From contig JADFJS010000002.1 in NCBI GenBank assembly GCA_022566155.1, forward strand, positions 1-38,600: a stretch of DNA of 38,600 nt, read 5' to 3'. Of this stretch, positions 3,460 to 32,861 are shown in pieces. Position numbers and translations under genes: made by a program. Every line of letters starts with the position of its first letter. The stretch's first letter is position 1. The notes below the pieces were generated by a model. That model was not told the DNA's origin and searched no databases. It was given only the letters and a program-made list of their open reading frames with translations. Origin of the DNA: Chloroflexota bacterium. GTDB taxonomy: Bacteria; Chloroflexota; Dehalococcoidia; Lucifugimonadales; UBA3495.

Positions 3460-4089
3460 ATGACCAGTATAAGGGGCAATTTTTTGCAGAGGCTACGGTC
3501 GCTGTTGCCCAGCCAACGAGGCATCACCGGACTTGAAACCGCCATCGTCTTGATCGCCTTCGTGGTGGTCTCGTCGGTGTTCGCCTTCGCGGCCCTGTCC
3601 ACCGGCCTGTTCTCCGCCGATAAAGCCAAAGACACCATTCAGGCAGGGCTTGCAGAGACCAGGGGCAGCATGGAGCTCAAAGGCTCTGTGGTGCTCACAT
3701 CGACCGTCGGCACCACCGGGGTTGTGTCCAACATCGCCTTCCAAGTGTCCAACGCCGCGGGCGGCGAGGCCATCGACCTGACCCCTGGCAAAACTATCAT
3801 CAAGTACAACGATGAAACCCAGTCGAGGATCTTCGACGCCGACAGTGGCTTTACCGTCACCCCAATCGGTAGTGCCGACAGCGACAAACTGCTTGAGCTA
3901 AAGGAGATCTACCAGATCGACATTATTAACCTTCATATCACCGGCGACAGTACCAGCAAGAATAATTTGTTGAACACGCTGGGTACCAACACGACCTTCA
4001 GCTTGGAAATAATTCCACCTAGGGGCGCAGTGCTCTTCATCGAACGCACCACGCCCGTTTACATGGACATCAGTACTTCGCTTGACTAA
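3460..4089 (+). CDS. arlB: Archaellin (archaeal flagellin ArlB/FlaB)
   Basis: Class III signal peptide QRG|ITGLETAIVLIAFVVVSSVFAF typical of archaellins; DSDKLLELKE motif; FSLEIIPPRGAVLFIERTTP C-terminus; GAGAGGAG RBS before ATG 3460. Confidence 0.93.
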   Translation: MTSIRGNFLQRLRSLLPSQRGITGLETAIVLIAFVVVSSVFAFAALSTGLFSADKAKDTIQAGLAETRGSMELKGSVVLTSTVGTTGVVSNIAFQVSNAAGGEAIDLTPGKTIIKYNDETQSRIFDADSGFTVTPIGSADSDKLLELKEIYQIDIINLHITGDSTSKNNLLNTLGTNTTFSLEIIPPRGAVLFIERTTPVYMDISTSLD

Positions 4090-4109
4090 CGGGCTACCTG
4101 TAAGTCGTG

Positions 4110-4138
4110 GGGCCGGTGGTACGCCAAGTACACCGGCC
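4110..4138 (+). terminator. GC-rich hairpin just after arlB (partial terminator or mRNA stabiliser)
   Basis: GGCCGGTG(G)TAC-GCCAA-GTACACCGGCC inverted repeat with no U-tract. Confidence 0.5.
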
Positions 4139-4280
4139 GGCACGGCAAATTCCGGCCCGGTCCAGCCAGCACAGTTAGTGGGCGCCTCACCCGAGCAGAC
4201 CTCGGCGGTGATATCCGTATCCCTGGAATCCACCACCGGGGCCTGTTCCCAAATACGACCTCCGGGCACAGGGATTCATC

Positions 4281-6065
4281 ATGGCGGATAAAGACACACG
4301 GGTAGACGCCCTGGAGGACGAGGTCAAGGTTCTCAAAGGCGAGGTCAGGCGGACGCTGGTGGACCTCCGGGCATTGCTGATGCGAGAGGACTCGCCCCTC
4401 AATGAAGGTTCGTTGGGACGCAGATCGACACCGATAGACTATGGCGCCGATGAAGGGCCTCCACAGGCACGAAAGGAAGTTACCGAGACGACAAAGGTGA
4501 TCGAGAACGAGCCGGCGGCGGCTGTACCGAGCGCCCCACAACCGGCTAATCCTGGTCAAGGAATCGGAAACGCCGCTCCACCATTTGCCGGTGTGGTCCC
4601 CGGTGGCATGTTTCCACCCCAAATGGGTCCTCAACCGGGGGCAGGTTGGCCCGGTCCTCAAGCAGTCCAAGCACCACCACCCCCAGCGCCAGCGCCAGCG
4701 CCAACACCACAAGCGTCGCCCGGCCTCGATGCGGCCATGGCCGAGCGAGAACGAAGGATGGTCGAACAGGAGCAAAGGATGGTGGAGCAGGAGCGGAGGA
4801 TCGCCGACCAGGAGCGGAAGATCGCCGACTCCGAGAGCGCCCGGGACCGCCGAGAACAGGACATCGCCAACGATGCAGTTAAACGGGAATCTCCCACTCC
4901 AGCCAGCCAGCCGGATTCCGTCGTGCCCGAAACAGTACGCACGTCTGTCGGAGGCAGGATGCAGGAAACGCCCACTCCAGCCAGCCAGCCGGATTCCAGC
5001 GTACCCGAAACAGTACGCACGCCTGACGAAGGCAGGATGCAAGAATCTACCCCTCCAGCCAACCAGCCGGACAGTGCATCCAAAACGGATCGCCCGCCCG
5101 AAGAAGTCAGGATGCAGGAAACACCGGCTCATGACAGGGAATCGGATCCTAGGCAGTCTGAGATGGAGCGCTCGTCCGTTGAAGTAGATCCGGAAATGAA
5201 CGGTATGGATCGGCCGGAGCCGCGGAAACGTCCTTCCGGCCGGATCCAAAACCAAGAACCCGAGGATGGTCAATCCGAGGAACCATCCCAGCCGAGACGG
5301 CTTGCCTCCCGTGGAGAACCCAGGCGTGAACCAGCGAACGACGATGTAGAGGTGGACTATGAGGATGGAGATCAGTTCGCCGGTAAGGATCAGATCGATG
5401 AACCCTATGATGACGAGTGGAACCAGCCGGACCGCGACATCTCATCTGGGCCCCGTCAAGAACAGCGGGGCCGGAAGCGAGTCTACTATGACGAAGACGC
5501 GGAGGCTGCCAGGCCTCGTTCCAGACTCCAGCATCAGGAGCAAGACTCGGCCGGCGCCTCTCAAGATTCTGATCGCCCTTCCCGCCGGCGGGTCAAGCCG
5601 GCGGAGTGGCGTCAACAGACCCAATCTGATAACGGACATGGTTACCATGAGAAATATGACGAGAATCAGAATATTAAACGCAACGGTACCGGCAGCCGGG
5701 TCTATGAAGAGTACTTTCAGCTCTTGTCTGAGACTGAGGAAAGCTACGAAGATAGCGGCGAAGCCTCCCCATCGGCGCCCATGGACATCAACCTGGTAGC
5801 CAGTTTGGTGCGCTGGGCATCGATCGCCAAACAAAGGGTGGGAGAGGACCGGTTATACGACATCCTGGAACTATACCTGCAATCGGGGCATGCTACCCCG
5901 GGGCTGCGCGAACTGCTAACACAAACCTCTGGGATGGCCGATGCTATGCCCCCTGAAACCAATCAAACCGCCCAAGAGTGTGTGGACCTGATATCCCACC
6001 TCCACGGCATACTCACCGGTTCCCTGGCCATCGCCAGAGTCCCACAGTTAAAGTTGCCGGCCTAG
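4281..6065 (+). CDS. ArlD/E (FlaD/E)-like archaellum accessory protein with a long disordered, repeat-containing middle
   Basis: N-terminal coiled coil; C-terminal LVRWASIAKQRVGEDRLYDILELYLQSG resembles the FlaD/E domain; lies between arlB and arlG. Confidence 0.7.
   Translation: MADKDTRVDALEDEVKVLKGEVRRTLVDLRALLMREDSPLNEGSLGRRSTPIDYGADEGPPQARKEVTETTKVIENEPAAAVPSAPQPANPGQGIGNAAPPFAGVVPGGMFPPQMGPQPGAGWPGPQAVQAPPPPAPAPAPTPQASPGLDAAMAERERRMVEQEQRMVEQERRIADQERKIADSESARDRREQDIANDAVKRESPTPASQPDSVVPETVRTSVGGRMQETPTPASQPDSSVPETVRTPDEGRMQESTPPANQPDSASKTDRPPEEVRMQETPAHDRESDPRQSEMERSSVEVDPEMNGMDRPEPRKRPSGRIQNQEPEDGQSEEPSQPRRLASRGEPRREPANDDVEVDYEDGDQFAGKDQIDEPYDDEWNQPDRDISSGPRQEQRGRKRVYYDEDAEAARPRSRLQHQEQDSAGASQDSDRPSRRRVKPAEWRQQTQSDNGHGYHEKYDENQNIKRNGTGSRVYEEYFQLLSETEESYEDSGEASPSAPMDINLVASLVRWASIAKQRVGEDRLYDILELYLQSGHATPGLRELLTQTSGMADAMPPETNQTAQECVDLISHLHGILTGSLAIARVPQLKLPA
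4749..4832 (+). repeat. Four 21-bp (heptad) coding repeats: ERRMVEQ/EQRMVEQ/ERRIADQ/ERKIADS
   Basis: Visible in both DNA and protein; coiled-coil register. Confidence 0.75.
4887..5125 (+). repeat. About 3 tandem 78-bp (26-aa) coding repeats
   Basis: CCCACTCCAGCCAGCCAGCCGGATTCC at 4893 and 4971, degenerate copy at about 5049; protein unit PTPASQPDSxVPETVRTxxxGRMQEx. Confidence 0.85.
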
Positions 6066-6098: not shown

Positions 6099-6566
6099 AT
6101 CGAAAAATCAATCTCCACAGCTATGTTCCTGATTGCCAGCGTAATCGCCGCGCTGGCCCTGACCAACGCGGTGCTGCCCGCAATGGGGAAAAGCGCCAGC
6201 GCCCTGGTTTCCGCCAATAAATCTGCCGCCGAGCGCATCAAGACCGATATTGCCATTGTTCACGCCACCGGAGACGCGGCCAATGACCAAGTCACCGTCT
6301 GGGTAAAGAATATTGGAACTCAATCAATCAAGCAAATCGACGCCAGCGACGTGTTTCTTACCACACCCAGCAGCGTGCTAAGACTGCCTTATGTAAGCAG
6401 TTGCGCCAGCGAGTGCTGGGATTATTCCATAGAAGGCGGCGGTGCCGCCTGGATCCAAGCGGTGACGGTCAAGTTTACTATAAAAACCAGCGTGGATACC
6501 GGCAATTACAATGTTTCCGTTGCCGTGGCCAACGCAGTTAGAGCCGACAAAGATTTCAGCGTCTAA
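6099..6566 (+). CDS. arlG: Archaellum stator protein ArlG (FlaG)
   Basis: N-terminal TM helix, ERIKTDIAIV and VWVKNIG motifs. First ATG is at 6123, but an in-frame ATC at 6099 follows the RBS CGGAGA. Confidence 0.85.
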   Translation: MEKSISTAMFLIASVIAALALTNAVLPAMGKSASALVSANKSAAERIKTDIAIVHATGDAANDQVTVWVKNIGTQSIKQIDASDVFLTTPSSVLRLPYVSSCASECWDYSIEGGGAAWIQAVTVKFTIKTSVDTGNYNVSVAVANAVRADKDFSV

Positions 6567-6612: not shown

Positions 6613-7131
6613 GTGGGCATCGTATTAGCGGGGTTTGTGGTAATCACCACCTTCTTGATGACCTCGGTGTTGATGTTTAGCGCATTTTTGTCCGCTTCTG
6701 TATCCCAGGGGGAATCATTGAGGGTGATCACTCACGTTAGCAGCGAAAGACTGGGCAGCGCACTATCCATAACTAGTGCATCCGTTGTCACCCCGGCTGG
6801 GCCGGACGTGGCGGTGCAGGTGGATAACAGTGGCAGCCAATCGGTGGTCCGCTTTGGCGAATTGGACGTGATCATAAAATACACCGATTCGGACAACACC
6901 GCGGCCCTGCGATACCTGGCGTATACCTCGGGCGCACTCGGCAACAACCAGTGGACGATCGCCACCACCGGGGTGCAGCCCGATAACTTCAACCCGGGGA
7001 TGTGGGACCCCGGTGAGACCCTGCCGATAGACCTGCGGGTGTCCCCAGCCATCAAGGCCGGGACCGCCGCAGAGGTAGTGGTGGGAACCCCATGGGGAGT
7101 AAACGATAAGAGTTCGATCGTCAACCCGTGA
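6613..7131 (+). CDS. arlF: Archaellum stator protein ArlF (FlaF)
   Basis: N-terminal TM helix, VQVDNSGS and FNPGMWDPGETL motifs; lies between arlG and arlH. Confidence 0.8.
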   Translation: MGIVLAGFVVITTFLMTSVLMFSAFLSASVSQGESLRVITHVSSERLGSALSITSASVVTPAGPDVAVQVDNSGSQSVVRFGELDVIIKYTDSDNTAALRYLAYTSGALGNNQWTIATTGVQPDNFNPGMWDPGETLPIDLRVSPAIKAGTAAEVVVGTPWGVNDKSSIVNP

Positions 7132-7210: not shown

Positions 7211-7933
7211 GTGACTACAGGCGCAATGGCGGATGCGGGAGGGATAATATCCACCGGAAGTAGCGAGATAGACAAGAAGCTGGGCGGCGGGATCCCTGTC
7301 GGGTCCCTGGTTCTGCTGGAGGGACAATCCGACTCCGGCAAGAGCGTCGTGTCTCAGCATTTCACCCATGGCTCATTGAACACTAGAATGTCGGCCGCCT
7401 ACTACACCACGGAAAACACGGTCAAGAGCCTGATGACCCAGATGGCCTCCCTTAACCTGGACGTCACCGATTACTTTCTGTGCGACCGATTGAGAGTTTA
7501 CCCCCTGGAGATGTCATCCACTAAGGAAAACGACACCAAGGAGGCGTTCCGGGTTCTTTTGGACCACTTCGACAGTTTACCCGTCAGGTTCAAACTGACG
7601 ATCGTGGACAGCCTTACCGGCCTGGTTTCCCACAGCGACGACCGGGCCATCATCGACTTCTTTGCCTCTTGTAAACAGCTCTGTGATCGAGGCCGCACGA
7701 TTATCGCCGTGGTCCACTCCTACGCCTTCGACGACCGCATGTTGATTCGTATACGTTCGCTGTGCGATGCACACCTGGTCCTGAAGGTGGACCAGGTGGG
7801 AGAGCGGTTGATCAAGATTATGGAGGTAGCGAAAGTTCGAAATGCCGACCAGTCCACGGGAAACATTATCAGCTTCGATGTGGAACCGGGTATGGGCATG
7901 AAAATCATCCCAATCTCAAAAGCTAAGGCTTAG
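7211..7933 (+). CDS. arlH: ArlH (FlaH) RecA/KaiC-like ATP-binding protein
   Basis: EIDKKLGGGIP, Walker A GQSDSGKS, YYTTENT, IVDSLT, FDVEPGMGMKIIP; GGAGGTG RBS. Confidence 0.95.
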   Translation: MTTGAMADAGGIISTGSSEIDKKLGGGIPVGSLVLLEGQSDSGKSVVSQHFTHGSLNTRMSAAYYTTENTVKSLMTQMASLNLDVTDYFLCDRLRVYPLEMSSTKENDTKEAFRVLLDHFDSLPVRFKLTIVDSLTGLVSHSDDRAIIDFFASCKQLCDRGRTIIAVVHSYAFDDRMLIRIRSLCDAHLVLKVDQVGERLIKIMEVAKVRNADQSTGNIISFDVEPGMGMKIIPISKAKA

Positions 7934-7936: not shown

Positions 7937-9661
7937 ATGCCTGCAGGTGCTTTGCCATTCCCGGCCCAAAAAGGACACTCCCATAAGGGAGGAATCAAGA
8001 CTTGCCCGATGTTCAAGATGTTGCCGGCGGGTCTGCAAGAGGAGGCCAAGAAAAATGAGTTTTTACTGGACTACATCCACATGCTGCCGATGGACGAGGT
8101 GGGCATCCCGGAATATTACCCCGAACTGAATCGGGGCTTGGGGGATCTAAAAGACCCCAACCTTATCTATCCGGTGGGGGAACAAACCTACATTCACATC
8201 TTTGCCGACCAGACCGATAGCCGCGACTACTACATCGCCATCGAGCCCGGGATGACGCTGGATATGGACAGCCTGATGGAGGCCCTTGAAGACCGCCTGG
8301 TTGACTACGTAGACGAGCTGGACGACTTGGATGGCGCCCAAACGGACCGGGGGCAGGTGCTGCGGAACATCCTCGCCAAGGCCTGCATAGTTGTCGATGC
8401 CAAAGACCTCAAATCTCAACGGAAAAAGAACGAGAAGAAGGCCGCTGCCAGACTTCCGGTCAGCAAGGCCGAAATGGCTTCGCTACGGTACCAATTGATA
8501 CGCGACAAAGAAGGCATGGGCGTGATGGAGCCGTTGATCCTGGACCCTTACATCGAGGATATAAGCTGCAGCGGCCTGGGCTCATTGTTCCTGGAGCACA
8601 AGATCTTCAAGAGCCTGAAGACCAACATTTCATTCGGGTCCTTAGACGAGCTGGACACCTTTGTGATCCAACTGTCCGAAAAGATTGGGAAACCAGTCAC
8701 CTACCGAAACCCCATTGTAGACGCCGTTCTTCCCGACGGCTCCCGCATCAATCTCGTCTTCGGCGCCGACGTCTCCAAGCGGGGCAGCAATTTTACTATT
8801 CGAAAGTTCTCAGCCGAACCGTTGAGCATGATTGAGTTGGTGGAGTTCGGAGGGCTGACCTATGAAATGGCCGCCTACTTTTCTCTCGCCATGCTCCACG
8901 GCATGAACATGTTCATTGCCGGGGAAACGGCCTCGGGGAAAACCACGCTGATGAACGCCGTGACGGTATTTCTCCATCCAAATTCCAAGATTGTCAGCAT
9001 TGAGGACACACCCGAACTTCAGGTCCCTCATCCCAACTGGATCCGGGAGGTGATCAGGGGTAAGGCGGGAGACGACTCCTCTTCTTCGGTTACCATGTTT
9101 GACCTGCTGCGGGCGGCCCTAAGGCAGCGGCCCAACGAGATCATTATTGGCGAGATCCGAGGCGAGGAAGGGGCGATCGCATTCCAGGCGATGCAGACCG
9201 GCCATGCCTGCATGGCTACTTTCCACGCGGCTTCGGTCGAGAAGCTGATCCAACGCCTTACCGGCAGCCCCATCAACATTCCCAAGACTTATATCGACAA
9301 CCTCAACTTGGTGGTCATTCAGAGCTTGGTACGCCTGCCCAACGGCAAGGATGGCCGCCGGATCCTCAGCATAAATGAGATCGTAGGCTACGATTCGGCG
9401 ACAGATTCCTTCTCTTATATCGAAGTTTTTCACTGGAACCCTGTGGATGATTCCTACGAGTTTACCGGTTACATGAACAGCTACCTGCTGGAGGAGGTCA
9501 TCGCCTTCAAATTGGGTCTCCCTCCTCATCGAAAACGTGAAATCTACAAGGAGCTCAGCCGAAGGGCCACCATCCTGCGTAAGCTAAAAGATCAGGGAGT
9601 CACCGGGTTCTATGACCTCTTCAAAGTCATCTCGCAAGCGTCCCGCCAAGGTATCTTCTGA
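7937..9661 (+). CDS. arlI: ArlI (FlaI) archaellum assembly/rotation ATPase
   Basis: DPYIEDISC, Walker A GETASGKT, SIEDTPE, LRAALRQRPNEIIIGEIRG, AMQTGH...TFHA; FlaI-type N-domain NLIYPVG. Confidence 0.95.
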   Translation: MPAGALPFPAQKGHSHKGGIKTCPMFKMLPAGLQEEAKKNEFLLDYIHMLPMDEVGIPEYYPELNRGLGDLKDPNLIYPVGEQTYIHIFADQTDSRDYYIAIEPGMTLDMDSLMEALEDRLVDYVDELDDLDGAQTDRGQVLRNILAKACIVVDAKDLKSQRKKNEKKAAARLPVSKAEMASLRYQLIRDKEGMGVMEPLILDPYIEDISCSGLGSLFLEHKIFKSLKTNISFGSLDELDTFVIQLSEKIGKPVTYRNPIVDAVLPDGSRINLVFGADVSKRGSNFTIRKFSAEPLSMIELVEFGGLTYEMAAYFSLAMLHGMNMFIAGETASGKTTLMNAVTVFLHPNSKIVSIEDTPELQVPHPNWIREVIRGKAGDDSSSSVTMFDLLRAALRQRPNEIIIGEIRGEEGAIAFQAMQTGHACMATFHAASVEKLIQRLTGSPINIPKTYIDNLNLVVIQSLVRLPNGKDGRRILSINEIVGYDSATDSFSYIEVFHWNPVDDSYEFTGYMNSYLLEEVIAFKLGLPPHRKREIYKELSRRATILRKLKDQGVTGFYDLFKVISQASRQGIF

Positions 9662-11099
9662 TAACGCCGCAATCAGCTTCGATCTGCTGTCCAACCTCAC
9701 GTACATGGCCGCGTTGGCCACCGGCGGATCGGACCGCGACACGATTCTGAAATGGGCGATCAAGCAAGATTTCAAGACGGGCACCTTTTTCCGCCGCGTC
9801 TACCTCCTCTCCAAGCGGCTAGGGTTCGAGTACACCCGGTCATTTCGCATGGTTGCCGCCAAAGCCGGCGCCTCATCGGTAAAAAACCTTTTACTGCGGT
9901 TCGCGGGCGCCATCTCCTCCGGTGTCTCCGAGGCTGACTTTCTGGCCGAAGAGGCGAGGGTCGAACGGGACCTGTACATAAACGCCTATTACCGCAGCCT
10001 CGAAACCCTGACGAAGTGGGGAGATGCCTACGCGGCCCTGCTGGTGTCGGTTTCCCTGATAGTAGTAGTCGCGATGATGTCCACCATGATCAGCAACCTG
10101 GGTGCCACTTTCGTGATTATGCTTACCTCGACCATGGTCATGGTGTCTGCCTTTGGCGTATATATCATCTATCGGACCGCGCCATACGAAATCAAGACAT
10201 ATCAAAACAACCGTGGACCAGTGGAGAGGGTTTGGGCCAAGCGTCTGTTTTACGCGCTGGTACCCGCGAGTATCTTGATTGGCATATTTCTCGGCTACAT
10301 TTACGGCTTCCACTATTTCCTCTTCTCCTTGGGGATTGCTCTTTTCCCTTCGGGCTTCATGGCCTGGATGGACAATGGCAAGGTTAACCAGCGAGACCAG
10401 GAAGCCGCGACCTTCGTGCGTTCCCTTGGCAATGTAACAGCCTCCCTGGGCACTACGCTAGGCGCCGCATTGATAAAGATAGACCGGCGCTACCTGGGCA
10501 GTCTGGAACCGTCTATCAGACGTCTGCAAGTACGTCTTAGCAGGGGAATCAACACCCAAAAGTGTTGGGACGCCTTCCGGGACGAGGTGGGCAGCGAGCT
10601 GATGAACCGGACTTCGCGCATGTTTGTCGACGGTGTCAGCCTGGGTGGACCTCCGGAAAAGGTGGGCGCCATCGCGGCGGAATACTCCCAGGACGCCGCA
10701 ACCATGCGGGCCCGCCGCATGGTGTCGGCCGCTCCATTCTCCTTTCTAGTGATTCCCCTCCACTTCGCCATGACCGGGTTGATGACCTTCGTCCTGGAGA
10801 TAATCAGAGCGTTCAATACACGAATAGAGATCGCCTCGGCAGAGCTGGCAGCGCAGTCGGGCGACGGGGCAATGGGCCTGTTGCCGGACTTGCCGATCTT
10901 CCAGACTCAGGATATGACCTTGATGTCTAACATCACCCTGGTCGCTCTGATATCCATGACCGTATCCAATGCCCTGGCGCCCAAATTCGCGTTGGGGGGG
11001 CATTCCCTGATCGTCGGCGTATTCGGCTCGATCACCTGCTTGATGACGGCTTTCAACATGGCGGTGATCCCCCCCATTGCCGCCCAGGTGATGCTATAG
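9612..11099 (+). CDS. arlJ: ArlJ (FlaJ) polytopic membrane platform protein
   Basis: LTYMAALATGG, multiple TM segments, two cytoplasmic domains; directly follows arlI. Confidence 0.9.
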   Translation: MTSSKSSRKRPAKVSSDNAAISFDLLSNLTYMAALATGGSDRDTILKWAIKQDFKTGTFFRRVYLLSKRLGFEYTRSFRMVAAKAGASSVKNLLLRFAGAISSGVSEADFLAEEARVERDLYINAYYRSLETLTKWGDAYAALLVSVSLIVVVAMMSTMISNLGATFVIMLTSTMVMVSAFGVYIIYRTAPYEIKTYQNNRGPVERVWAKRLFYALVPASILIGIFLGYIYGFHYFLFSLGIALFPSGFMAWMDNGKVNQRDQEAATFVRSLGNVTASLGTTLGAALIKIDRRYLGSLEPSIRRLQVRLSRGINTQKCWDAFRDEVGSELMNRTSRMFVDGVSLGGPPEKVGAIAAEYSQDAATMRARRMVSAAPFSFLVIPLHFAMTGLMTFVLEIIRAFNTRIEIASAELAAQSGDGAMGLLPDLPIFQTQDMTLMSNITLVALISMTVSNALAPKFALGGHSLIVGVFGSITCLMTAFNMAVIPPIAAQVML

Positions 11100-11201: not shown

Positions 11202-11915
11202 ATGGGCCTACTGGGCAAGATTATCAAACGGCAGAGTGCCGAGGACGCGGAAGATCTTGACTTCGAAGAAGAATTAGTCGATTCCCTGGACATGCCTGAC
11301 GAGGAGAGTGGCTCCAGTACCGGAATCCTGGGTAAAGTCCTGAAGTGGCGCGGGAAGGGTGACTCGGAAGATGCGGACGAGGACGAGGAGCCGGACGAGA
11401 TAGAGGATACGGATGAGACGGAGGATGCGGACGAAACGGATTCTGATGAGTACCCCAGCAACGCCGACGCTGCCGGCACCGCGGAAGAGGACCCTCCTGT
11501 CCAGGTAGTACGGTTGGAAGGTATTCCAGATGTACACCCTGTCGGTGATTCAAATACCAACATGACGCCGGGGCGGGGACCCGGGGCTGCCGCGGGCGCC
11601 GGGGGATCCGCCGGGCCCAGCGCTGGGCAGGATCCCGCTGCGGATTCTTCCCTGGAAGACGGCAACAATGCTGCCGAATCGCCCATAGCTGAGGTGGATG
11701 ACGCCGAGGGGGATGACACTAAAGAAGGCGACTCCAAGCAAGGCGGCGCCAGCGTACCAGACCTCGGCATTTCTTTGGAAGATATATTTGGGGAGGAGGA
11801 GGAGGTAGACGAAGCCCTTCGAGACCTCGCCGACTTCGTGGAAGATGTCGCGGCCAAAGATTTGGCCAGCGACCTGCAAGAGTTCTTAGAAGAACTGGAA
11901 GCCAGGCAGAAATGA
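11202..11915 (+). CDS. Highly acidic hypothetical protein at the end of the arl operon
   Basis: GAAGGAG RBS; D/E-rich; two amphipathic motifs (MGLLGKIIKR, GILGKVLKWR); helical C-terminus. Confidence 0.7.
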   Translation: MGLLGKIIKRQSAEDAEDLDFEEELVDSLDMPDEESGSSTGILGKVLKWRGKGDSEDADEDEEPDEIEDTDETEDADETDSDEYPSNADAAGTAEEDPPVQVVRLEGIPDVHPVGDSNTNMTPGRGPGAAAGAGGSAGPSAGQDPAADSSLEDGNNAAESPIAEVDDAEGDDTKEGDSKQGGASVPDLGISLEDIFGEEEEVDEALRDLADFVEDVAAKDLASDLQEFLEELEARQK

Positions 11916-12000: not shown

Positions 12001-12095
12001 AACCATAACAGGCCGGGGTTGGTATAAGACGGTTCTCGCCTTGGTCTGAGCCCTAATGCCGGACTGCTGTCCGAGTGGGTCTGCGAGGGGGAACT

Positions 12096-13958: not shown

Positions 13959-13993
13959 CGACCGCTTCGATAGACGCCGGTTGAGCAATCTCC

Positions 13994-14028
13994 CCGGTCT
14001 CATCTCCGCATCCGGTTTCATCTCCGCA
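13994..14028 (+). repeat. Tandem 17-bp direct repeat (18-bp period) CCGGTYTCATCTCCGCA
   Basis: Copies at 13994-14010 and 14012-14028 with one mismatch. Confidence 0.7.
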
Positions 14029-14367
14029 CTTTGTTTCACCCACTCCCTGCCGGGACTCGCCAGAGTCGGGTTGCGGCACGAAAACTGCCTCTTTTCTGGG
14101 GACATACGCCCTCTGCCGGCCAAAATTCGTGTGAGCTTTCTACACCGACGAACTGCGCCAAAGTTCAAATTGACCGGTTTTTGGACCTTTTTCAGCAACT
14201 GCGTTATCATAACTGGACCGTGCTCACCGCTGATGACGCCGGAAATCCGTAAACGCGGGCGCACGAATGCTTGAACTATTGTTGGAGTGGTGAAATCATA
14301 TATGTAGGCAAAATCTGAGATGCTGCCGCGCACCTTTCGTGCCGGTTGAATGAGGTTAACCATCCAG

Positions 14368-20658: not shown

Positions 20659-20674
20659 TGTGTGCAAAGTCACA
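20659..20674. promoter_or_regulatory. CRP/FNR-family-like box TGTGT-N6-TCACA upstream of the TPR gene
   Basis: 9/10 match to TGTGA-N6-TCACA, intergenic. Confidence 0.5.
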
Positions 20675-20752
20675 GTTGATCAGCGTCATGGTATGTACCA
20701 TATACATAACAATAACTAGAGGAGGTAAGGCACCCCTTACCCTGGAAACACT

Positions 20753-24339: not shown

Positions 24340-24881
24340 CAGTCCAGTTTCCTGATGTGGGTTGTGAGACTGATGCTTTCCGTTGTACCTCGATCGGCAT
24401 CAACCGCCAGGTCGAATTTGAGGTCGTTATTGCAAAGGGAGAAGCCCACGGACCCTGATACAACTTCCCTGGCTACGACGGTTGTTAAACCGTCATAGTC
24501 TCTGTTCAGGGTGTCGCCCGTCACCAGGTAGGTGACTACGTGGGACCCACTGCCGTCGCTCAGAATCAAGGTCACGCTGTTGGCTGGTGAGGTGGGATTA
24601 CAGGAGAGGTTGGTCCCAGCCGGAGGCGGCCCATCCAAGACATTTTCCGCTTTCAGAGCATCGCCGGCGAACCTGCTGCCGGCGTGGCGCAGCTCCATCG
24701 TGGCCACCGCGCCGTCGCGCCAGTACCTCTGAATGCTGTGGACCTGGAATAGCGCGCCGCCAATCATACCCGTGGCCATGGTGAGAAGGCCCACGGCAAT
24801 GACCAACTCTATCAGGGTGAATCCACCACCGCCGGCCAGAGTTGATTTCAAAGCCTTGGCTTTTTCCAGTATTGTCGCCAA
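24339..24881 (-). CDS. Minor type IV pilin (PilW/PulJ-like)
   Basis: GG|FTLIELVIAVGLL N-methylation motif. Confidence 0.85.
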   Translation of the reverse strand: MATILEKAKALKSTLAGGGGFTLIELVIAVGLLTMATGMIGGALFQVHSIQRYWRDGAVATMELRHAGSRFAGDALKAENVLDGPPPAGTNLSCNPTSPANSVTLILSDGSGSHVVTYLVTGDTLNRDYDGLTTVVAREVVSGSVGFSLCNNDLKFDLAVDADRGTTESISLTTHIRKLD

Positions 24882-25124: not shown

Positions 25125-25619
25125 CTAGTTGGCCCTCAGCGTCTCCAATACCAGCACAGCCCGCCCCTCCACGCTGACGGTTACCACCACTCTTTCAACG
25201 GTCCCCTCGTAGCTGTCGGAGGCCTGCAACTCCAACGCTACGGCGCAGATGCTATAGCCGGTGGAGGAACCGCAGGCATTCGCCTCGGCGAGAGTATCGT
25301 ACGCCACGGGCTGGGACTCAGCGGGCTTGTAGGCCTGATTGAATACGGACTCCATCTGGTTGCGGGCGAGGCGCTCGGCGATTGAATGGTCTTCCACTAA
25401 ACTGGCCGAAATGTGGGCCGTGCGGACGCCCAGCACCACGGCCGTACCCACCGCTCCGAAAATAGTTATCGCCAGGACAACCTCTATCAACATCTGGCCC
25501 GAGGAATCCCGGGCCAGCCTCCAGGGTTCCAGCCAGAACCCCCGGCCCATCCGCCGCAGGAAGGCTAGTGCACGTGCTGAGCCAGTTGTTGCGATCCATT
25601 TAAAAGCTGGAAATAACAT
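25125..25619 (-). CDS. Minor type IV pilin (PilV/PulI-like); start uncertain (25550, 25619 or 25724)
   Basis: SG|QMLIEVVLAITIFG motif, AERLARNQME, C-terminal VERVVVTVS strand. Confidence 0.75.
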   Translation of the reverse strand: MLFPAFKWIATTGSARALAFLRRMGRGFWLEPWRLARDSSGQMLIEVVLAITIFGAVGTAVVLGVRTAHISASLVEDHSIAERLARNQMESVFNQAYKPAESQPVAYDTLAEANACGSSTGYSICAVALELQASDSYEGTVERVVVTVSVEGRAVLVLETLRAN

Positions 25620-25780
25620 TTTTGCTAGGTTCTTCCTGGTGCCGGCTCTTGCCCATCTTCTAAAGCCTAGGAACAGCAACGCCCGGCATTTGCTGCATAG
25701 TGCTGCCGGGCATTGCTGTCCCACTAACCTATCATCGATGGATGGCGCCCCACCGCCAGCTTAGAGCCCTTGGGGCACCG

Positions 25781-26158
25781 CTAGCAATCTGTTTGGGCTA
25801 GAAGTTTACCCGTAGTGTCCCAAGTGTAACAGTAGGCGGTGGAGTCGTCCCTGAAGTACTCGGCTATCAGTTGCCCACTGCCGAAGTCGGTGGTATTGGT
25901 GATCGCGGCGGCGGTGCCACCGGCCGTAACTGAGGTCAAATTGTTGTCGGTGATCATGAGATCAATGGCCGCTTGCACGTTATCGAACTCCGACTTCTTG
26001 GCGCCCTCTTCACCGCTTCCGGAGAACTTGATGACCGTGGGGACGATGACCGCGGCCAAGGCCACGATAATTCCCACCACGACGAGCATTTCGATAAGAG
26101 TAAACCCCTTTTGGCTCTTGCCCACCTTCTCTTGGATGTTTTTGAGCATTTTCCGCAT
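25781..26158 (-). CDS. pilA: Major type IV pilin
   Basis: Basic leader QKG|FTLIEMLVVVGII..P22; C-terminal Cys pair; strong AGGAGGT RBS; own upstream regulatory region. Confidence 0.88.
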   Translation of the reverse strand: MRKMLKNIQEKVGKSQKGFTLIEMLVVVGIIVALAAVIVPTVIKFSGSGEEGAKKSEFDNVQAAIDLMITDNNLTSVTAGGTAAAITNTTDFGSGQLIAEYFRDDSTAYCYTWDTTGKLLAQTDC

Positions 26159-26428: not shown

Positions 26429-28168
26429 TTACTCTTCTGCTTCGAGCACCGGGATTGTAGCCATGATGGCAAAGCTTACACCTCCCTTTTTTTCTTCGCT
26501 CACTTGCTGCACGGTGGCATTGGCGAAGGCAAGTTCATTGCGTAGGTTAGCCGAATATTCTCCGGTTTCATCTTGATATTTGTCGAAACCCTGCCTGGTA
26601 AACAGCCTGTATTGGCGTAGGCCGGCGGCATATTCGAGCACCTCCCCACTGTCGGATGCTATGCCGGTCAGAAGAAAATTACCATCCTGGGGGACCAAAG
26701 ACACGAGTTCAACACCTTCGGGCAGGGCTCTGCTGGTAACGGTCTCCAGCCTGACCAAAAGATCAGCCATGCTGCCGCTCATGTCCAGAAGTTGCGTCTC
26801 CAGCGCTTGGATCTCGATATCGGCCGCCTTCAAATCACGAGCAGTGGACCTCAATCGGTTGGAATCCAGGCGCAGACCCCGCTCCCCAGCCTCCTTGTCT
26901 GATTTTTCAGCGGATCGCAAGTCCGCATCCTGCACCGCCTCGGCGACGGGGCCAGCGACGCTGAAAGCAAGGCCCGCCAACAGGAAGAGTCCGATAAATA
27001 CGCCAATCGCTAAAAACGGGAATGGCCGCGGCCGGTAGCGCTCTGGCAGAATGTTGAGCACCGGGCCAGAATCACGCCAGGTTTTCCCCTTGGCCTTATC
27101 GCCCAGGAACAATCCAAGGTTTGCCGCATATTCGCTGGACGGGAAATCATCCGGGCAATCCAATGATGGCGTAAAGGGCAGCACGGGGCCCTGTAAAACC
27201 CGAGGGAGAGCTTCCGCCAACCGGCTGTTTGTAGCGAGTTGGCCGGTCAAGACAACCGGCAGGGTCTGGGTGACTTCCTCCGGGTCCACCATCTGATAAA
27301 AGCCCTCTACACGGTCCACGACCGACGCCACAGCCTCGGCTTGGTCCTCGGCAGAGGTGATGCCTTCGGGGAATTCCATCTGGTGGACTACCCTGGGCAT
27401 GCGGTCTCGCACCAGAACTACCGCCGTCTGAGCGCGTTCAATGTGAACTATGATGACGTCCGGCACGCCCACGGCGAAGGCCAGCGCCGCTTCTTTGGAG
27501 TACACGGCCTTGAGCGTCCCACCGGCTTCCTCGAAGAGCTGCACCTGAGTGTCCATCTTGCTTTTAGGCACCGCCGCCGCGATAACCTCATGGCCCGCGC
27601 TGTCCCGGCGGCGGAGCCAGTTGATATCCACTTCAAATGGATCGAATGGAATGCTATTCACGACCTCGGCGTGGATGATCTCTTCAAGGTGCGCTTTGCT
27701 GGTCCCGGGCAGACGCATGTGACGCATCAGGGGTATGTACAGGGGCAGGTCTGCCACCAACCGGCTACGCCTTTGCTGGATCTCCTCCAGCATGACGCTG
27801 AGCTCGCTCTTGGGCGGGGGGGCCGGCATATCATCGGAGCCCTCTTCGGGCGTGTCCTGTGCCGGTTTACCTTCCCCTGGCGGTTGCGCCTCAGATGCGG
27901 ACCCTTCTTTATCGAGAGATGCGCTTTCCAGAGAAGCCGATCTCCATCCGAGCACCTGGGCCCCCTTGAACACCACTGCCCGTACTTGACCGGACTCCAT
28001 GCTGAGGGTCACTGTCTGGGCGCGGAACCTCTGGGTTGACGCTTCCAGCCTCACGGATACACGGCGCCAGATCGGGCTTAACACGCGAGTTACGCCACCC
28101 AAAGCCCCCGCTATCGCTTGACGCAAGGTAGTGACGGCCCTGGCTATCGCTTGACGCATGGTAGTCAC
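26429..28168 (-). CDS. PilM-PilN fusion (actin-like PilM domain, TM helix, coiled coil, PilN domain)
   Basis: PilM-like IPFDPFEVDINW, VIAAAVPK, VVLTG; PilN-type LNILP motif before the TM helix; LLTGIA..VLEYAAGL. Confidence 0.7.
   Translation of the reverse strand: MTTMRQAIARAVTTLRQAIAGALGGVTRVLSPIWRRVSVRLEASTQRFRAQTVTLSMESGQVRAVVFKGAQVLGWRSASLESASLDKEGSASEAQPPGEGKPAQDTPEEGSDDMPAPPPKSELSVMLEEIQQRRSRLVADLPLYIPLMRHMRLPGTSKAHLEEIIHAEVVNSIPFDPFEVDINWLRRRDSAGHEVIAAAVPKSKMDTQVQLFEEAGGTLKAVYSKEAALAFAVGVPDVIIVHIERAQTAVVLVRDRMPRVVHQMEFPEGITSAEDQAEAVASVVDRVEGFYQMVDPEEVTQTLPVVLTGQLATNSRLAEALPRVLQGPVLPFTPSLDCPDDFPSSEYAANLGLFLGDKAKGKTWRDSGPVLNILPERYRPRPFPFLAIGVFIGLFLLAGLAFSVAGPVAEAVQDADLRSAEKSDKEAGERGLRLDSNRLRSTARDLKAADIEIQALETQLLDMSGSMADLLVRLETVTSRALPEGVELVSLVPQDGNFLLTGIASDSGEVLEYAAGLRQYRLFTRQGFDKYQDETGEYSANLRNELAFANATVQQVSEEKKGGVSFAIMATIPVLEAEE
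28110..28168 (-). repeat. 26-bp direct repeat (33-bp period) encoding TTMRQAIARAV/TTLRQAIAGAL
   Basis: GCTATCGCTTGACGCAWGGTAGTSAC at 28110 and 28143. Confidence 0.8.
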
Positions 28169-28977
28169 CGCCCCAGCCGCGGAGAGTGTCCTGTACTCCC
28201 CGCCGAACTTGAGGCTGCCGCCGGCCTAGGAGTAGACGTGGGGTGGGGCACCGCGGTTGCAACCGGCGGCTTTGGAGTGGCGGTCGGAACAGTAACCGGA
28301 GAAAGGAAGAACAGAAGCGTAACCTGAGCAGACGGGTCCTCGTCCAATTTAGAGAACCTGATGTCAGTGGCGGTGGCCACAGGGACCGTTTCCCGGAGCA
28401 GGGCTAGAAATTTAGAGAAATCGACCGGCCCTCCTCTCAAGTTCAAACCTACCCGCCCGACTTGGTAGTCCATGGGCCCCACATTCTCGATCTGCGACTC
28501 GCCAGACGAGATGGAGATCAGGGTCATTCCCGTTTCCAGGGCGGTATCGGCCACGATCTTCAGCAATTCGTCGGTGGAGGAGTACTGGAAAACGCCGTTG
28601 AGGGCCTTCAACTGTAAGCCCCCAGCTTCCAGCAGCAATTTTTTGGCTTCTAACTGCTGCTTCAGCGCGTCGATGTTTTCCTCTAGCAACAGCTTCCGGG
28701 CTTCAAACAGCAGTTCTCCGCCTTTCAGCTTTGGGTCCTCGGTTTGCAGCCGCACCTTCAGGGATTCTAATCTCCTCTCCGGGTCCTTCACCGGGGAGAG
28801 GGCGGCTATCTTGCGGTCAAGGACACTGATGTCCTTTTCCAGAGAGGACTCATCGGACTGAGCTTGATAGTACCGAAACCCCTGGTATGCGAAATAGCCG
28901 AGCAGTGCCACTCCCATGATGCCTGCGATGGCGATCCAAGGCTTGACTCTTTTCAGGAGTTGTCGTAGTTGGTCCAA
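28165..28977 (-). CDS. PilO-like alignment protein
   Basis: N-terminal TM helix, coiled coil, ferredoxin-like domain (LNLRGGPVDFSKFLALL), Pro/Thr tail. Confidence 0.65.
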   Translation of the reverse strand: MDQLRQLLKRVKPWIAIAGIMGVALLGYFAYQGFRYYQAQSDESSLEKDISVLDRKIAALSPVKDPERRLESLKVRLQTEDPKLKGGELLFEARKLLLEENIDALKQQLEAKKLLLEAGGLQLKALNGVFQYSSTDELLKIVADTALETGMTLISISSGESQIENVGPMDYQVGRVGLNLRGGPVDFSKFLALLRETVPVATATDIRFSKLDEDPSAQVTLLFFLSPVTVPTATPKPPVATAVPHPTSTPRPAAASSSAGSTGHSPRLGR

Positions 28978-29013: not shown

Positions 29014-30225
29014 CTAGGGGGCTATGGCGTCCATTCCAGACATGATGGGCATGAACATGGACAGTGCCATAAACAGTACAACTCCCCCCACGGCGAAAGT
29101 AGACAAGGGCTCCATCAGGGATAGGATGGCGGCCAGCCGGTTCTCCACTTCAGCCTCGTATGCATTGGCCAGGTTTTCCAGTGTCTGGGGCAGGAAATTG
29201 TTTTCCTCCCCCACCATCACCAATTCCACCCAGAGCCTGGGTAGGACAGGGTATTCCTTGAGGGCTTGTGCCATACCGCGCCCGGCTAAAAGGCTCTGTT
29301 CTCCAGCCGCGAAGGCAGCATAAACCACCAGGTTCTTGCACCCGCCGATGGCCAGAGGCAGGGACTCGGCCAAGGATACACCGGCATTTAGCAGCATTGC
29401 GTTGGTGCGGGAAAATGCCGCTATCTCTTTGGACACCAACAGGCTACCGATGACGGGTAATTTGGTGCTCGCTAAGTGCATCTTGTAATGGATAGTGGGG
29501 ATACGGCTCCCAACCGCGTAAGCGACCGCCAGGAATACGATGACCCCGACTATGATCAATAGATTGTCCGAGATGAACCCCACAACGCCCATGGCGATGG
29601 CGGTGATCAGAGGGGTATCGGCGTCGAAGGCCTCGAAAGATTCGAGGAGGGGCGGCAGCATGACGGTCATCATGAGGACCAGCATCGCCACGGAGGAACC
29701 CATGGTGAAGAGGGGCATCATCATGGTCCGCTTGAACCGCTGAACCGCCTCGTGCTCCCGCTCCATGGAGTCGGACAGCTGCTCCAGGGCCGATGCAAGA
29801 CCGCCGGTGTGTTCGCCAACTTCCACCACGCTTACAAAACGGGCGTTGAACACCGCAGGGTGCTTGGCCATCCCAGAGGAAAGGCTGCCACCTTCGTCTA
29901 GGGTCTTGCGGATGCTGGCCAGGATCTTGCGTAATACTCTATTTTTGCTCTCAGACTCCAACATTTCAAGCGAGCGTTGAAGGCTGCTTCCGCCCAGTGT
30001 CATGGTGGCTAGCTGCCGGGACAGGCGCACCAGGTCCCCAGTTTTGACCTTGAACAGGGATGGGAAAATCTCGTCAATGGGAGGAAGCTTCCGCGCAGGT
30101 TTGAGCTGAAGCAGCCTCAACCCCCTGCCAAGGACCTCTTCCCGGGCCTCATACTCGTTCTCGGCATCCACCCGGCCTTTGATCACGCCCTGCTCCAGGG
30201 TGTAGGCCACATAGTTGAACTGCAT
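29014..30225 (-). CDS. pilC: Type IV pilus platform protein PilC (GspF family)
   Basis: RQLATM, EGGSLS, VGEHTGGL, LMEPL motifs; ATG 30225 follows GAGAGG. Confidence 0.92.
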   Translation of the reverse strand: MQFNYVAYTLEQGVIKGRVDAENEYEAREEVLGRGLRLLQLKPARKLPPIDEIFPSLFKVKTGDLVRLSRQLATMTLGGSSLQRSLEMLESESKNRVLRKILASIRKTLDEGGSLSSGMAKHPAVFNARFVSVVEVGEHTGGLASALEQLSDSMEREHEAVQRFKRTMMMPLFTMGSSVAMLVLMMTVMLPPLLESFEAFDADTPLITAIAMGVVGFISDNLLIIVGVIVFLAVAYAVGSRIPTIHYKMHLASTKLPVIGSLLVSKEIAAFSRTNAMLLNAGVSLAESLPLAIGGCKNLVVYAAFAAGEQSLLAGRGMAQALKEYPVLPRLWVELVMVGEENNFLPQTLENLANAYEAEVENRLAAILSLMEPLSTFAVGGVVLFMALSMFMPIMSGMDAIAP

Positions 30226-30237
30226 AGACAACCCTCT

Positions 30238-32019
30238 CTACTCCAACGTGAATAGAACCCGCATTACTTCGTAGGGAGTAGTGATTCCCGCATCCACCTT
30301 CTCCATGCCGTCACGCCGCAGATAGGTCATTCCGTCCTTGAGGGCCTGTTCCCAAAGCTTGTAACGGGGCGCGTCTTCCATGAAGAGCTGGCGGATTGCG
30401 TCGGTCATAGCCATAATCTCGAAGACGCCGGTGCGGCCCAGGTATCCAGTCTGGGCGCAAGCGTTGCAGCCGGCGCCATAGTAGAACCTCTCTCGGGTGC
30501 GTCCCATCTCTTCGGCAAAGACCTGCTGCTCAGCCAGTGGGCGTGAGGTCAACGCGCCGCAGGTGGAGCATACGCGACGCACCATTCTCTGGGCCACTAA
30601 ACCTGCCACCGAAGAAACGATCAGGTAGGGGGGCACGCCAAGGTCTCTGAGGCGTATCAGCGCCGAAACAGTGTCGTTGGCGTGCAGAGAGGTCAGCACC
30701 AAGTGGCCGGTCAGGGCGGCCTGGGTGGCGATGATCGCCGTCTCCTGGTCCCGGATCTCCCCGATCAGTATAACGTCTGGGTCCAAGCGCAGGATGCTGC
30801 GCAGCTGGGTGGCGAAGGTGATGCCGGCGTCATTATGAACTTGCATCTGATTAACGTCGGCCATATGGTATTCCACCGGGTCTTCAATGGAGATCATCTT
30901 GTTCTCCACCCGGTTCATCTGCATCAGCGAAGCGTAAAGGGTGGTGCTTTTCCCGGACCCGGTGGGGCCGCAGACGATAATCATGCCATAGGGAAGTTTC
31001 AGCAATTTCCGGTACTGCTCTTGAGATTCTTCATCGAATCCCAATTGCTCCAGACCCAATAGCGTGAATTTGGCGTTGTCCAGCAGGCGCAGCACCGCCA
31101 TCTCACCGGTAACGGTACCGCTAACGGCCACACGCACGTCGATCTCCCGCCCGTGGGCTTCAAAGTTAAGCTGCCCATCCTGAGGCCGCCGCCGCTCGGC
31201 GATGTTCATTCCGCACTCGATCTTCAGACGGGAGATGATGGTGGCATGCATGTCCATGGGCAGATTCATTACCTCATGCAGGATACCATCGATGCGAAAC
31301 CGGATTCGAAGCCGTTCCTCTGCCGGTTCGATGTGTATGTCCGAGGCCCGGTCCTGGAGCGCCTGACGCAGCAAAAGGTTGATCACCTGAGCCGGCCCCG
31401 CCTCTCGGACCTTCCGCGAGGTAACCCGCTCGTTGGGCTGGCCATCTTCGTCCACGTCGGTGGACTCCAGCGCCTCGCTAAGGCGATAGTAGAGGTCGAT
31501 GTGTTCCTGGATGTCGTCCCCAGTGGTGACCACCGGATCGATGATTCGACCGGTCCGGGCCGCCAGGTCTTGAAGGAGCTGAAGATCGGTGGGGTCGGCC
31601 ATGGCCACGGTCAGATGCCCATCCTTCTGGCTCAACGCAAGGACCATATACTTGCGCGCCACATCTTCGGGGACCAACCGGACCGCCGCACGGTCAATGG
31701 TCTCGGCTCGGAGTTCAACCATGGTCAGACCCAGGTGGAGGGCAGTCAGCGTGGCCAAGACCCTTGAGGCCACCAGGTCATCCCGCACCAGGATCTGCCC
31801 CAGAGGAAGACGCTCCCGCCGGGCCTCCTCCTGCGCTCGGTTCACCTGGTCGGAGGATAGAATACCTCCCTCCACCAGCATCTGCGCTAATGAAAATCCG
31901 CGAGCACGGCCAGCCGGTTTCGAAACCGGACTTGGCGCACTTAGAGTGGAAACCTCGGTTCCACCCAGGTCTGCGCTTCCGCCCCCGCCGTTGATTTCGA
32001 TGCCATTATCTTCGCGCAT
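30238..32019 (-). CDS. pilB: Type IV pilus extension ATPase PilB (GspE family)
   Basis: RASDIHIEP, Walker A GPTGSGKST, EDPVE, LRLDPDVILIGEIRD, Zn CxxC...CxxC. Confidence 0.93.
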   Translation of the reverse strand: MREDNGIEINGGGGSADLGGTEVSTLSAPSPVSKPAGRARGFSLAQMLVEGGILSSDQVNRAQEEARRERLPLGQILVRDDLVASRVLATLTALHLGLTMVELRAETIDRAAVRLVPEDVARKYMVLALSQKDGHLTVAMADPTDLQLLQDLAARTGRIIDPVVTTGDDIQEHIDLYYRLSEALESTDVDEDGQPNERVTSRKVREAGPAQVINLLLRQALQDRASDIHIEPAEERLRIRFRIDGILHEVMNLPMDMHATIISRLKIECGMNIAERRRPQDGQLNFEAHGREIDVRVAVSGTVTGEMAVLRLLDNAKFTLLGLEQLGFDEESQEQYRKLLKLPYGMIIVCGPTGSGKSTTLYASLMQMNRVENKMISIEDPVEYHMADVNQMQVHNDAGITFATQLRSILRLDPDVILIGEIRDQETAIIATQAALTGHLVLTSLHANDTVSALIRLRDLGVPPYLIVSSVAGLVAQRMVRRVCSTCGALTSRPLAEQQVFAEEMGRTRERFYYGAGCNACAQTGYLGRTGVFEIMAMTDAIRQLFMEDAPRYKLWEQALKDGMTYLRRDGMEKVDAGITTPYEVMRVLFTLE

Positions 32020-32087
32020 CTCGCTTTGATTCCCTCCGGGTGGCCAAATCGGTGACCCGTCAAAGGTGATCTGCCTGATATCCTCGT

Positions 32088-32861
32088 TCAGCCCAACGAC
32101 ACTTTAAGCTGACGCTCGTTGGAATCGGTGTCTATCCCATTGGGGGCGGCCACCTCGGACACACCTTCGATCTCGAGCAGGATGGTTCTAAGCGGCATGG
32201 GCTCCCTGAGCCTTAGCCATATGTCCATGCCCTCCCTCCGCTGGTCGGCGGTCAATCGCAACAGGTGAAAATGCTGATTGTTTCTGAGCTCGTCAACGAA
32301 CCGGATCATGGCCCTGATGTAACCGGCGCTCTTTATCATCAGCTTGACGGTACCTTCGTAGACCTCTTCGTCGACCGATGGAGCGGGTACATCCAGGTCG
32401 ATGGGGGGCGCTGGAGGCGGTTCCGGGACCACCAAAGGCTCCGGGATCACTCCCCCATCGTAGCGGCGCAAGACGGCCTTGACCCTTGCGGCCAGCTCAG
32501 CTATGGCGAAGGGTTTGGTCACATAATCATCGGCGCCCAACTCCAGGCCCCGCACCTTGTCCTCGTCCCGGTTTTCGCCGGTGACCATAATGATGGGAAC
32601 CTGGGAGAATTCTCGAATGCGCTGGCACGTGGTGAAACCGTCGATGCCAGGCATATTCACATCGAGCAAGATCAAAACCGGGCTAATAGTCTTGATGATC
32701 GCCAGCGCTTCCTCTCCACTGCCGACGGTCTCCACCGGGAATCCCTCTTCTTCCAGGACGAATTTTTCCAATCGCTGGGTGCGGGAATCGTCATCCACGA
32801 CGAGAACCAGGCCTTTCTGGGGGCCTTTTTCCTCGGCTTCGTTCGAGTTCGCTTGCGCCAT
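32088..32861 (-). CDS. Response regulator: OmpR-type receiver plus a non-wHTH C-terminal domain
   Basis: VVDDD, LLDVNMPGIDG, GADDYVTKPF; Pro-rich linker. Confidence 0.85.
   Translation of the reverse strand: MAQANSNEAEEKGPQKGLVLVVDDDSRTQRLEKFVLEEEGFPVETVGSGEEALAIIKTISPVLILLDVNMPGIDGFTTCQRIREFSQVPIIMVTGENRDEDKVRGLELGADDYVTKPFAIAELAARVKAVLRRYDGGVIPEPLVVPEPPPAPPIDLDVPAPSVDEEVYEGTVKLMIKSAGYIRAMIRFVDELRNNQHFHLLRLTADQRREGMDIWLRLREPMPLRTILLEIEGVSEVAAPNGIDTDSNERQLKVSLG

Follow-up and report, generated by a model that had tools for sequence, protein, structure and literature searches.

In the Chloroflexota, the class III signal peptidase has been reported to lie outside the archaellum locus and, in non-SAR202 members, to be of the bacterial PilD type (Sivabalasarma et al., Nat Microbiol 2025, PMC12488501). 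According to the same paper, ArlB in the filament of Litorilinea aerophila has Ile29, at the predicted cleavage site, as its first residue, and pili of the Tad or type IVa kind accompany the archaellum in some genomes; its main text does not contain the word "methyl". For SAR202 isolates, a FlaK candidate has been predicted (Lim et al., PMC10444878). Here we analyzed a window of 38.6 kb, corresponding to the whole of contig C140 (JADFJS010000002.1) of an uncultivated Chloroflexota bacterium, which carries an archaellum (arl) operon and a type IV pilus operon. The metagenome-assembled genome (MAG) to which it belongs, G000, comprises 1.87 Mb in 179 contigs and is 67.45% complete and 2.62% contaminated, and all statements on its gene content cover this assembled ~67% (G numbers designate genomes and L numbers loci in relatives). 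We propose, with a probability of roughly 0.7, that a single resident PilD encoded on a second contig, C76, matures both ArlB and the pilins of two pilus operons, the subunits being sorted by the platform protein and ATPase of each machine. This shared use of PilD is a further instance of an arrangement already in print.

As in the described archaellum of L. aerophila (PMC12488501), the operon in the window follows the order arlB, an intervening gene, arlG, arlF, arlH, arlI and arlJ, its ArlB has a signal peptide of class III whose cleavage site is conserved, and the peptidase is not part of the operon. An initial annotation of this stretch had placed the archaellum operon on the forward strand and a PilB/PilC pilus operon on the reverse strand, about 10 kb apart, and had found no prepilin peptidase in the window. 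Profile matches confirmed both operons, with a gap of 9.9-10.7 kb between the pilus operon and ArlJ or the following gene, U237, and a six-frame search with PF01478 (E ≤ 1) gave no match on C140, so that no class III signal peptidase was found in or near the arl locus. In contrast to L. aerophila, the source is an incomplete MAG of another lineage, whose relatives are mostly titled Dehalococcoidia; its PilD is placed within a second pilus operon, three filament machines are present, and PilN/PilO-LysM genes were not observed next to the arl operon of the window.

When applied to the whole of G000, the same six-frame PF01478 search (E ≤ 1), which detected this family in all four archaeal and, overall, 12 of 14 reference genomes, returned a single match, at C76:5684-6037. 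The corresponding gene (C76:5537-6340) encodes a protein of 267 amino acids (aa) that matches both PF06750 (A24_N_bact; 99.5 bits, cut-off 23) and PF01478 (45.9 bits, cut-off 26.5). Its zinc-finger N-domain displays the arrangement C37xxC40-X21-C62xxC65, with Gly60-Arg61 ahead of the third cysteine, and the catalytic aspartates are D114 (IDLE) and D187 (GGGDIK). A CxxC-X21-CxxC motif, a glycine and a basic residue ahead of the third cysteine, and two aspartates are features named for the bifunctional PilD of Pseudomonas aeruginosa (Aly et al., PMC3584216). The C76 enzyme thus shares with P. aeruginosa PilD/XcpA the CxxC-X21-CxxC domain and the two aspartates and, judged by these motifs, is a bacterial PilD of the bifunctional type. 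When the short core-only peptidase of a relative was used as query, it matched only this PilD in G000; a PF06750 search of the genome likewise gave PilD only and no stand-alone gene for its N-domain. By both PF01478 and the short-peptidase query, a core-only (PibD/ArlK-like) A24 peptidase is absent from the assembled 67% of G000. The initial annotation had called for a genome search discriminating PilD from PibD/FlaK, and the answer within the assembled part is one bacterial PilD and no core-only enzyme. Its suggestion that one PilD encoded elsewhere serves both substrates gains partial support, in that the sole A24 peptidase of the assembled 67% is a PilD and relatives likewise show a single PilD-type enzyme.

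The gene for PilD on C76 belongs to a second pilus operon, with the order PilB, PilC, two small proteins, a PilM-like protein, PilD, a PilS-like kinase, a LuxR-type regulator and two pilins, the latter displaying the motifs GEG↓FTLIEL and SSG↓FTLIEL (arrows mark the cleavage site). Genome-wide, G000 encodes two PilB, two PilC and one ArlI, with no other T2SSE ATPase above the cut-off; PF00437 matched only the two PilB, ArlI and one further sequence at 21 bits, and no TadA-like ATPase was found with this profile. Because C76 carries a second PilB/PilC operon, the number of type IV filament machines in the assembled genome has to be raised from the two previously counted to three, and these stand beside one A24 peptidase.

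The archaeal-type substrate in this proposal is the archaellin encoded by arlB (3460..4089, +), which matches PF01917 (E 6e-23, 82.3 bits, cut-off 29.5) and, in its N-terminal domain, TIGR02537 (28 bits, cut-off 20). A genome-wide profile search located all archaellin-family matches of G000 in the window. The class III signal peptide has a 21-aa leader, MTSIRGNFLQRLRSLLPSQRG↓ITGLETAIVLIAF, with Gly at -1, Glu at +5 and the residue pair RG before the cut; the G↓ITGLE site with Glu at +5, read by the initial annotation, was found as described, within the cleavage region RG↓ITGLETAI. In the mechanism that we propose, a horizontally derived archaellum operon would have been inherited vertically thereafter, alongside bacterial type IV pilus operons, of which there are at least two. 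No peptidase is encoded in the archaellum locus itself, and pre-ArlB (MTSIRGNFLQRLRSLLPSQRG↓ITGLE...) would be cut after Gly-1 by the bifunctional PilD of C76, an enzyme that would process the G↓FTLIE pilins of the two pilus operons as well. The subunits would be sorted after cleavage, depending on ArlJ/ArlI on one side and on PilC/PilB on the other. Sorting after cleavage is the accepted view for archaea with one PibD and for bacteria whose pili and type II secretion share one PilD. A single P. aeruginosa peptidase, PilD/XcpA, acts for type IV pili as well as type II secretion, and the PibD of Sulfolobus, in work from 2003 by Albers et al., is said to be shared by archaellins, pilins and bindosome subunits. 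In both cases, as in our proposal, several type IV filament machines depend on one A24 enzyme, and their subunits are sorted once cleaved; unlike P. aeruginosa PilD, the C76 enzyme would count an archaeal-type archaellin among its substrates.

The distribution of peptidases among related genomes is consistent with this assignment. In an order-level sample of 201 genomes, in which ArlI and PilB were each scored as present at E ≤ 1e-60, ArlI was found in 26 genomes including G000 (22 of them above the cut-off) and in none of the seven genomes of the same family. Nine of the 25 other ArlI-positive genomes encode a PilD-type enzyme with A24_N_bact (G001, G044, G053, G059, G081, G098, G125, G130 and G143, the N-domain being weak in G081), and seven of these nine have PilB, the exceptions being G059 and G125. 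Another nine (G035, G047, G084, G092, G094, G121, G147, G168 and G186) have a short core-only enzyme of 179-223 aa and no PilB (0/9), and every one of these short peptidases sits 0.46-2.6 kb downstream of arlJ. Three genomes of one genus (G048, G093 and G122) encode a long form with no detected N-domain and no PilB (0/3), one (G049) has PilB and only three CpaA-like copies of 152 aa, and in three (G030, G062 and G198) an A24 match is absent, PilB being present in G062 only. The combination of PilD and a short arl-linked peptidase did not occur in any genome of the order sample, and ArlI, PilB and PilD are located on one contig in G098 (within ~42 kb) and in G001. The long forms of G048, G093 and G122 (L014, L008 and L017, respectively) measure 274-288 aa and display an N-terminal extension with scattered cysteines and no A24_N_bact match. 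Besides the archaellum of L. aerophila, the closest known counterparts are those of SAR202 'Ca. Lucifugimonas marina' (PMC10444878) and of the short-peptidase relatives; the latter share with the window the ArlB N-terminus (in G186 and G094) and the core arl genes, and differ in that a core-only A24 enzyme of 179-223 aa lies near arlJ and PilB is missing from all nine, whereas G000 has PilD and two PilB operons.

Likewise, G202, G203 and G204, which harbor the loci closest to the window in ArlB or operon, give one strong A24 match each, and this is an ortholog of PilD (58-61% identity) in the same PilM-like/PilD/kinase context; G202 displays one extra, sub-threshold A24 match (17.8 bits). G203 resembles G000 in encoding two PilB, one of them beside PilD, plus ArlI. 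In G208 (L094), a 2.30-Mb record titled chromosome and assigned to the Dehalococcoidales, there is one strong A24 match of the PilD type, a protein of 275 aa with CDAC...CRSC encoded about 0.5 Mb from the arl locus, together with six T2SSE-family ATPase matches.

Several observations weigh against a shared PilD in G000. Since this genome is 67.45% complete and split into 179 contigs, the assembly could be missing a second peptidase; only binning links C76 to C140, their G+C contents being 58.6% and 58.5% at a contamination of 2.62%. ArlB is most similar (87%) in a locus of G201, which gives no A24 match and whose arl genes look fragmented, and there are likewise no A24 matches in G030 (95% complete) and G062 (83%). 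Furthermore, P. aeruginosa PilD was inactive on a non-cognate archaeal substrate, from M. voltae, in a result given as data not shown (Aly et al., PMC3584216), and consequently cleavage across domains cannot be assumed. A literature search brought up no direct assay of a Chloroflexota PilD acting on ArlB. Finally, G049 (93% complete, 12% contamination), whose arl operon is the most similar among the order-sample genomes, combines PilB and an archaellum with no PilD, its A24 matches being the three CpaA-like copies of 152 aa.

G049 suggests that ArlB might be processed by a small CpaA/TadV-like A24 enzyme of a Tad-type or mobile system, since only such near-identical copies accompany its archaellum and PilB. 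For the window this would be a highly improbable route, as neither a gene of this kind nor a TadA-like ATPase is present in the assembled G000. The three CpaA/TadV-like copies in G049 (L026, L028 and L029) lie on one contig and may belong to repeated mobile elements.

The incompleteness of G000 lends itself more readily to another explanation, namely that a dedicated core-only A24 enzyme, of the PibD/ArlK-like or arl-linked kind, is encoded in the unassembled third and processes ArlB, with PilD serving the pili only. Such enzymes do exist in the phylum, where an A24 gene lies within 5 kb of arlJ in 13 of the 44 named arl loci whose sequence continues for 3 kb or more past arlJ, and two genomes of the Anaerolineae group (G206 and G207) possess an arl-linked A24 plus a second core-only A24 elsewhere. 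However, they sit 0.5-2.6 kb from arlJ, whereas in C140 the 27.5 kb downstream of this gene and all of the contig upstream hold none; moreover, none of the nine PilD-type genomes of the order sample has a short arl-linked enzyme, and the strong A24 matches in G202-G204 are of the PilD type only. We regard a dedicated enzyme as unlikely on these grounds and retain the shared PilD as the preferred reading.

Sharing of PilD is nevertheless not the general reason why an archaeal machine functions in these bacteria, as the initial annotation had supposed, because other Chloroflexota carry a core-only A24 enzyme beside arlJ. Among ten further A24 open reading frames (ORFs) found beside named arl loci, eight are core-only, 142-247 aa long and 0.5-1.4 kb downstream of arlJ; their records are mostly titled Anaerolineae, Ardenticatenaceae or Candidatus filamentous taxa, and two are titled only Chloroflexota. 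Altogether, core-only A24 genes 0.5-2.6 kb downstream of arlJ were recorded in L037, L038, L040, L042-L044, L046, L050, L052, L082, L083, L086, L092, L095, L097, L116 and L128. This position in many Chloroflexota differs from the peptidase outside the locus described in the 2025 paper, a difference that may hinge on how the locus is defined. An archaeal nature of the short and arl-linked peptidases was considered and could not be confirmed, as NCBIfam searches with ten proteins and PDB sequence searches were uninformative; since neither gave a usable class, these enzymes are designated here as core-only, with no A24_N_bact.

In an unrooted tree of ArlI, the genomes with short peptidases form one clade and those with the Anaerolineae-linked type another, and the PilD-type genomes occur at several positions; the window falls into a group with G202 and G203, with full support (100 in the Shimodaira-Hasegawa-like approximate likelihood ratio test, SH-aLRT). 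A more far-reaching possibility, which we put forward tentatively and consider rather doubtful, is that PilD would both cleave pre-ArlB and N-methylate its Ile+1, yielding a hybrid used by no archaeon, and that arl-linked core-only peptidases would have been lost repeatedly where PilD took over. Methylation is suggested by the joint presence of Glu+5 in ArlB and of intact zinc-finger methylase determinants in PilD, and repeated loss by the interleaving of PilD-type, arl-linked and short-type genomes on the unrooted tree, together with the fact that PilD and a short arl-linked enzyme co-occurred in no genome of the order sample.

The N-terminus of ArlB does not follow the type of peptidase. In 17 of 20 ArlB ORFs from the order sample the sequence G↓(I/V)TGLET is found, and of the remaining three, two are truncated by contig ends and the third, from G059, has G↓FSRLES; in alignment A1 the segment G21-F34 is invariant but for one I/V column. 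Short-peptidase genomes contribute two of the 17 (from G186 and G094), which read KG↓ITGLETAIILIAF. The idea that Glu+5 is an adaptation of ArlB to PilD was rejected, as the same N-terminus is present in PilD-type genomes and in these two short-peptidase genomes. Since it stays the same whatever the peptidase, Glu+5 is rather a property of this archaellin clade.

The relatives of the locus also bear on whether the archaellum is assembled. ArlB is encoded in 556 of 614 candidate stretches, and among the 80 ArlB stretches that were kept, 79 are titled as Chloroflexota taxa, mostly Dehalococcoidia, and one as 'Bacterium HR23'. In L058 (G202) and L060 (G203) the gene order is that of the window, coxS-coxM-coxG-arlB-U594-arlG-F-H-I-J-U237-glmS, the flanks of the arl operon in the window being coxS-coxM-coxG (953-3018) and glmS (12075-13958). 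This common coxSMG-arl-glmS order indicates that the insertion site is conserved in this clade. ArlI, ArlH, ArlJ and ArlB of the window are 73-74%, 78%, 62-64% and 60-61% identical, respectively, to their counterparts in L058 and L060, and the flanking GlmS and coxM 72-73% each. Given that these identities are about those of glmS and coxM and that the gene order is kept, the arl operon is inherited and conserved like its neighbors.

A silent or decaying locus, in which no archaellum is assembled and ArlB is never matured, would leave no role for PilD in archaellin processing. Cultured SAR202 strains showed no visible archaella despite complete loci (PMC10444878), and in some relatives arlI and arlH are split (G130) or arlB is fragmented (L098). 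In the window, however, each of the seven arl genes has an intact reading frame of full length, ArlI exceeds its equivalog cut-off, and the identity of the arl genes to their orthologs in G202 and G203 equals that of the flanking glmS and coxM in a retained gene order, which renders such decay distinctly unlikely for this operon. Split arlI/arlH or fragmented arlB/arlJ ORFs were observed in L053 (G130), in L098 and L071 (G201) and in L093, and could be either assembly indels of long-read MAGs or decaying loci.

The remaining genes of the arl operon are all on the forward strand. The product of the intervening gene (4281..6065), U594, is a protein of 594 aa with no match in Pfam or NCBIfam, mostly disordered and rich in proline and charged residues, with a coiled coil at its N-terminus and, at the C-terminus, a conserved domain of ~120 aa, and its homologues occupy the same slot between arlB and arlG in many relatives. 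In the ESM Atlas the top cluster for U594 scored 0.85 and contained Arch_fla_DE in 21% of its members, and a Pfam search (E ≤ 1) detected Arch_fla_DE in one of 12 homologues (E 0.019); from these weak sequence leads, U594 possibly contains an ArlD/E-like domain. The putative stator genes arlG (6123..6566) and arlF (6613..7131) gave matches below the curated cut-offs: ArlG by NF052591 (E 1.9e-10, below cut-off) and PF01917 (E 3.8e-6), and ArlF by FlaF_Ig-like (E 1.1e-5) and NF052590 (E 1.8e-4, below cut-off), with scores of 41 bits for ArlG and 21.7 bits for ArlF (cut-off 110). Their position and order agree with those in relatives, and both proteins lack a leader peptide and display a hydrophobic segment right at the start. 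The KaiC-like arlH (7211..7933; NF004723, 278.5 bits, cut-off 194) and the motor ATPase gene arlI (7937..9661; NF058587, 662 bits, cut-off 550) exceed their cut-offs, and the platform gene arlJ (9612..11099) matches NF004703 at E 1.9e-112, its 376 bits falling short of the equivalog cut-off (570). U237, encoded after arlJ (11202..11915), is an acidic, low-complexity protein of 237 aa with no family match, weakly conserved at this position in L058 and L060 (39-46 aligned residues). It fills the slot that in other lineages holds an A24 peptidase; the possibility that U237 is a diverged A24 enzyme was rejected, as it is acidic and of low complexity and has neither transmembrane segments nor a family match.

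The pilus operon of the window is encoded on the reverse strand and headed by a response regulator (32088..32861; Response_reg E 7.7e-31). It is followed by the gene of the assembly ATPase PilB, with an MshEN domain (30238..32019; T2SSE E 3.6e-121, 404.7 bits; MshEN E 3.5e-23), which matches TIGR02538 at E 1.1e-158 but below the cut-off, and by that of the platform protein PilC (29014..30231), in which T2SSF matches two repeats (E 1.6e-40, 138.4 bits). The designation of this operon as PilB/C/MN/O in the initial annotation stood for PilB and PilC and fared less well for the other components. The PilM/PilN-like fusion (26429..28168) has weak matches, both below cut-off (PilN E 0.0013, PilM_2 E 0.0086), and the putative PilO (28165..28977), a protein of 270 aa with a transmembrane segment and a coiled coil, is without a family match and bears this label by position and topology only. 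Three pilin-like genes are located downstream. The first (25781..26158), with the motif KSQKG↓FTLIEM, resembles a major pilin (N_methyl 30.2 bits, cut-off 21.2; TIGR02532 27.9 bits, cut-off 16.3). The second (25125..25724) encodes a minor pilin-like protein, recognized by its sequence, SSG↓QMLIEV, and a GspI match below the cut-off (E 1.2e-4), whose true start is probably internal. The third (24339..24881) was identified by its motif, GGGG↓FTLIEL, and by N_methyl (E 0.0064). The last gene of the operon (21811..24339) encodes an 842-aa protein with a VWA domain (E 5.9e-16) and DUF11 repeats (E 2.1e-9), a candidate pilus-tip adhesin of the PilY1/PilC kind of monoderm-type pili.

Between the two filament operons, Pfam matches identify genes for glmS, GT4, a phosphodiesterase-family enzyme, a GHMP kinase, an aspartokinase, GT2 and a TPR protein (12075..21547, +), among which synteny in relatives was shown for glmS only. 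As O-glycan density has been reported on ArlB of L. aerophila, the sugar-related genes at 12075-20343 (glmS, a TreT-like GT4, GT2, the GHMP kinase and the phosphodiesterase-family enzyme) are candidates for filament glycosylation.

Because the basic point has been published before, the gain from this locus is incremental. What it adds is the placement of PilD within a second pilus operon, the mutual exclusion of peptidase types in the sampled relatives, and the arl-linked location of the core-only peptidases. The C76 PilD and the ArlB of the window constitute a concrete enzyme-substrate pair with which the action of a bacterial PilD on an archaeal-type archaellin may be tested. In the sampled Chloroflexota at least two solutions seem to be in use, a dedicated peptidase beside arlJ in genomes devoid of PilB and the resident PilD in those with type IV pili, and together they provide background on how a horizontally acquired machine may plug into the maturation apparatus of its host.

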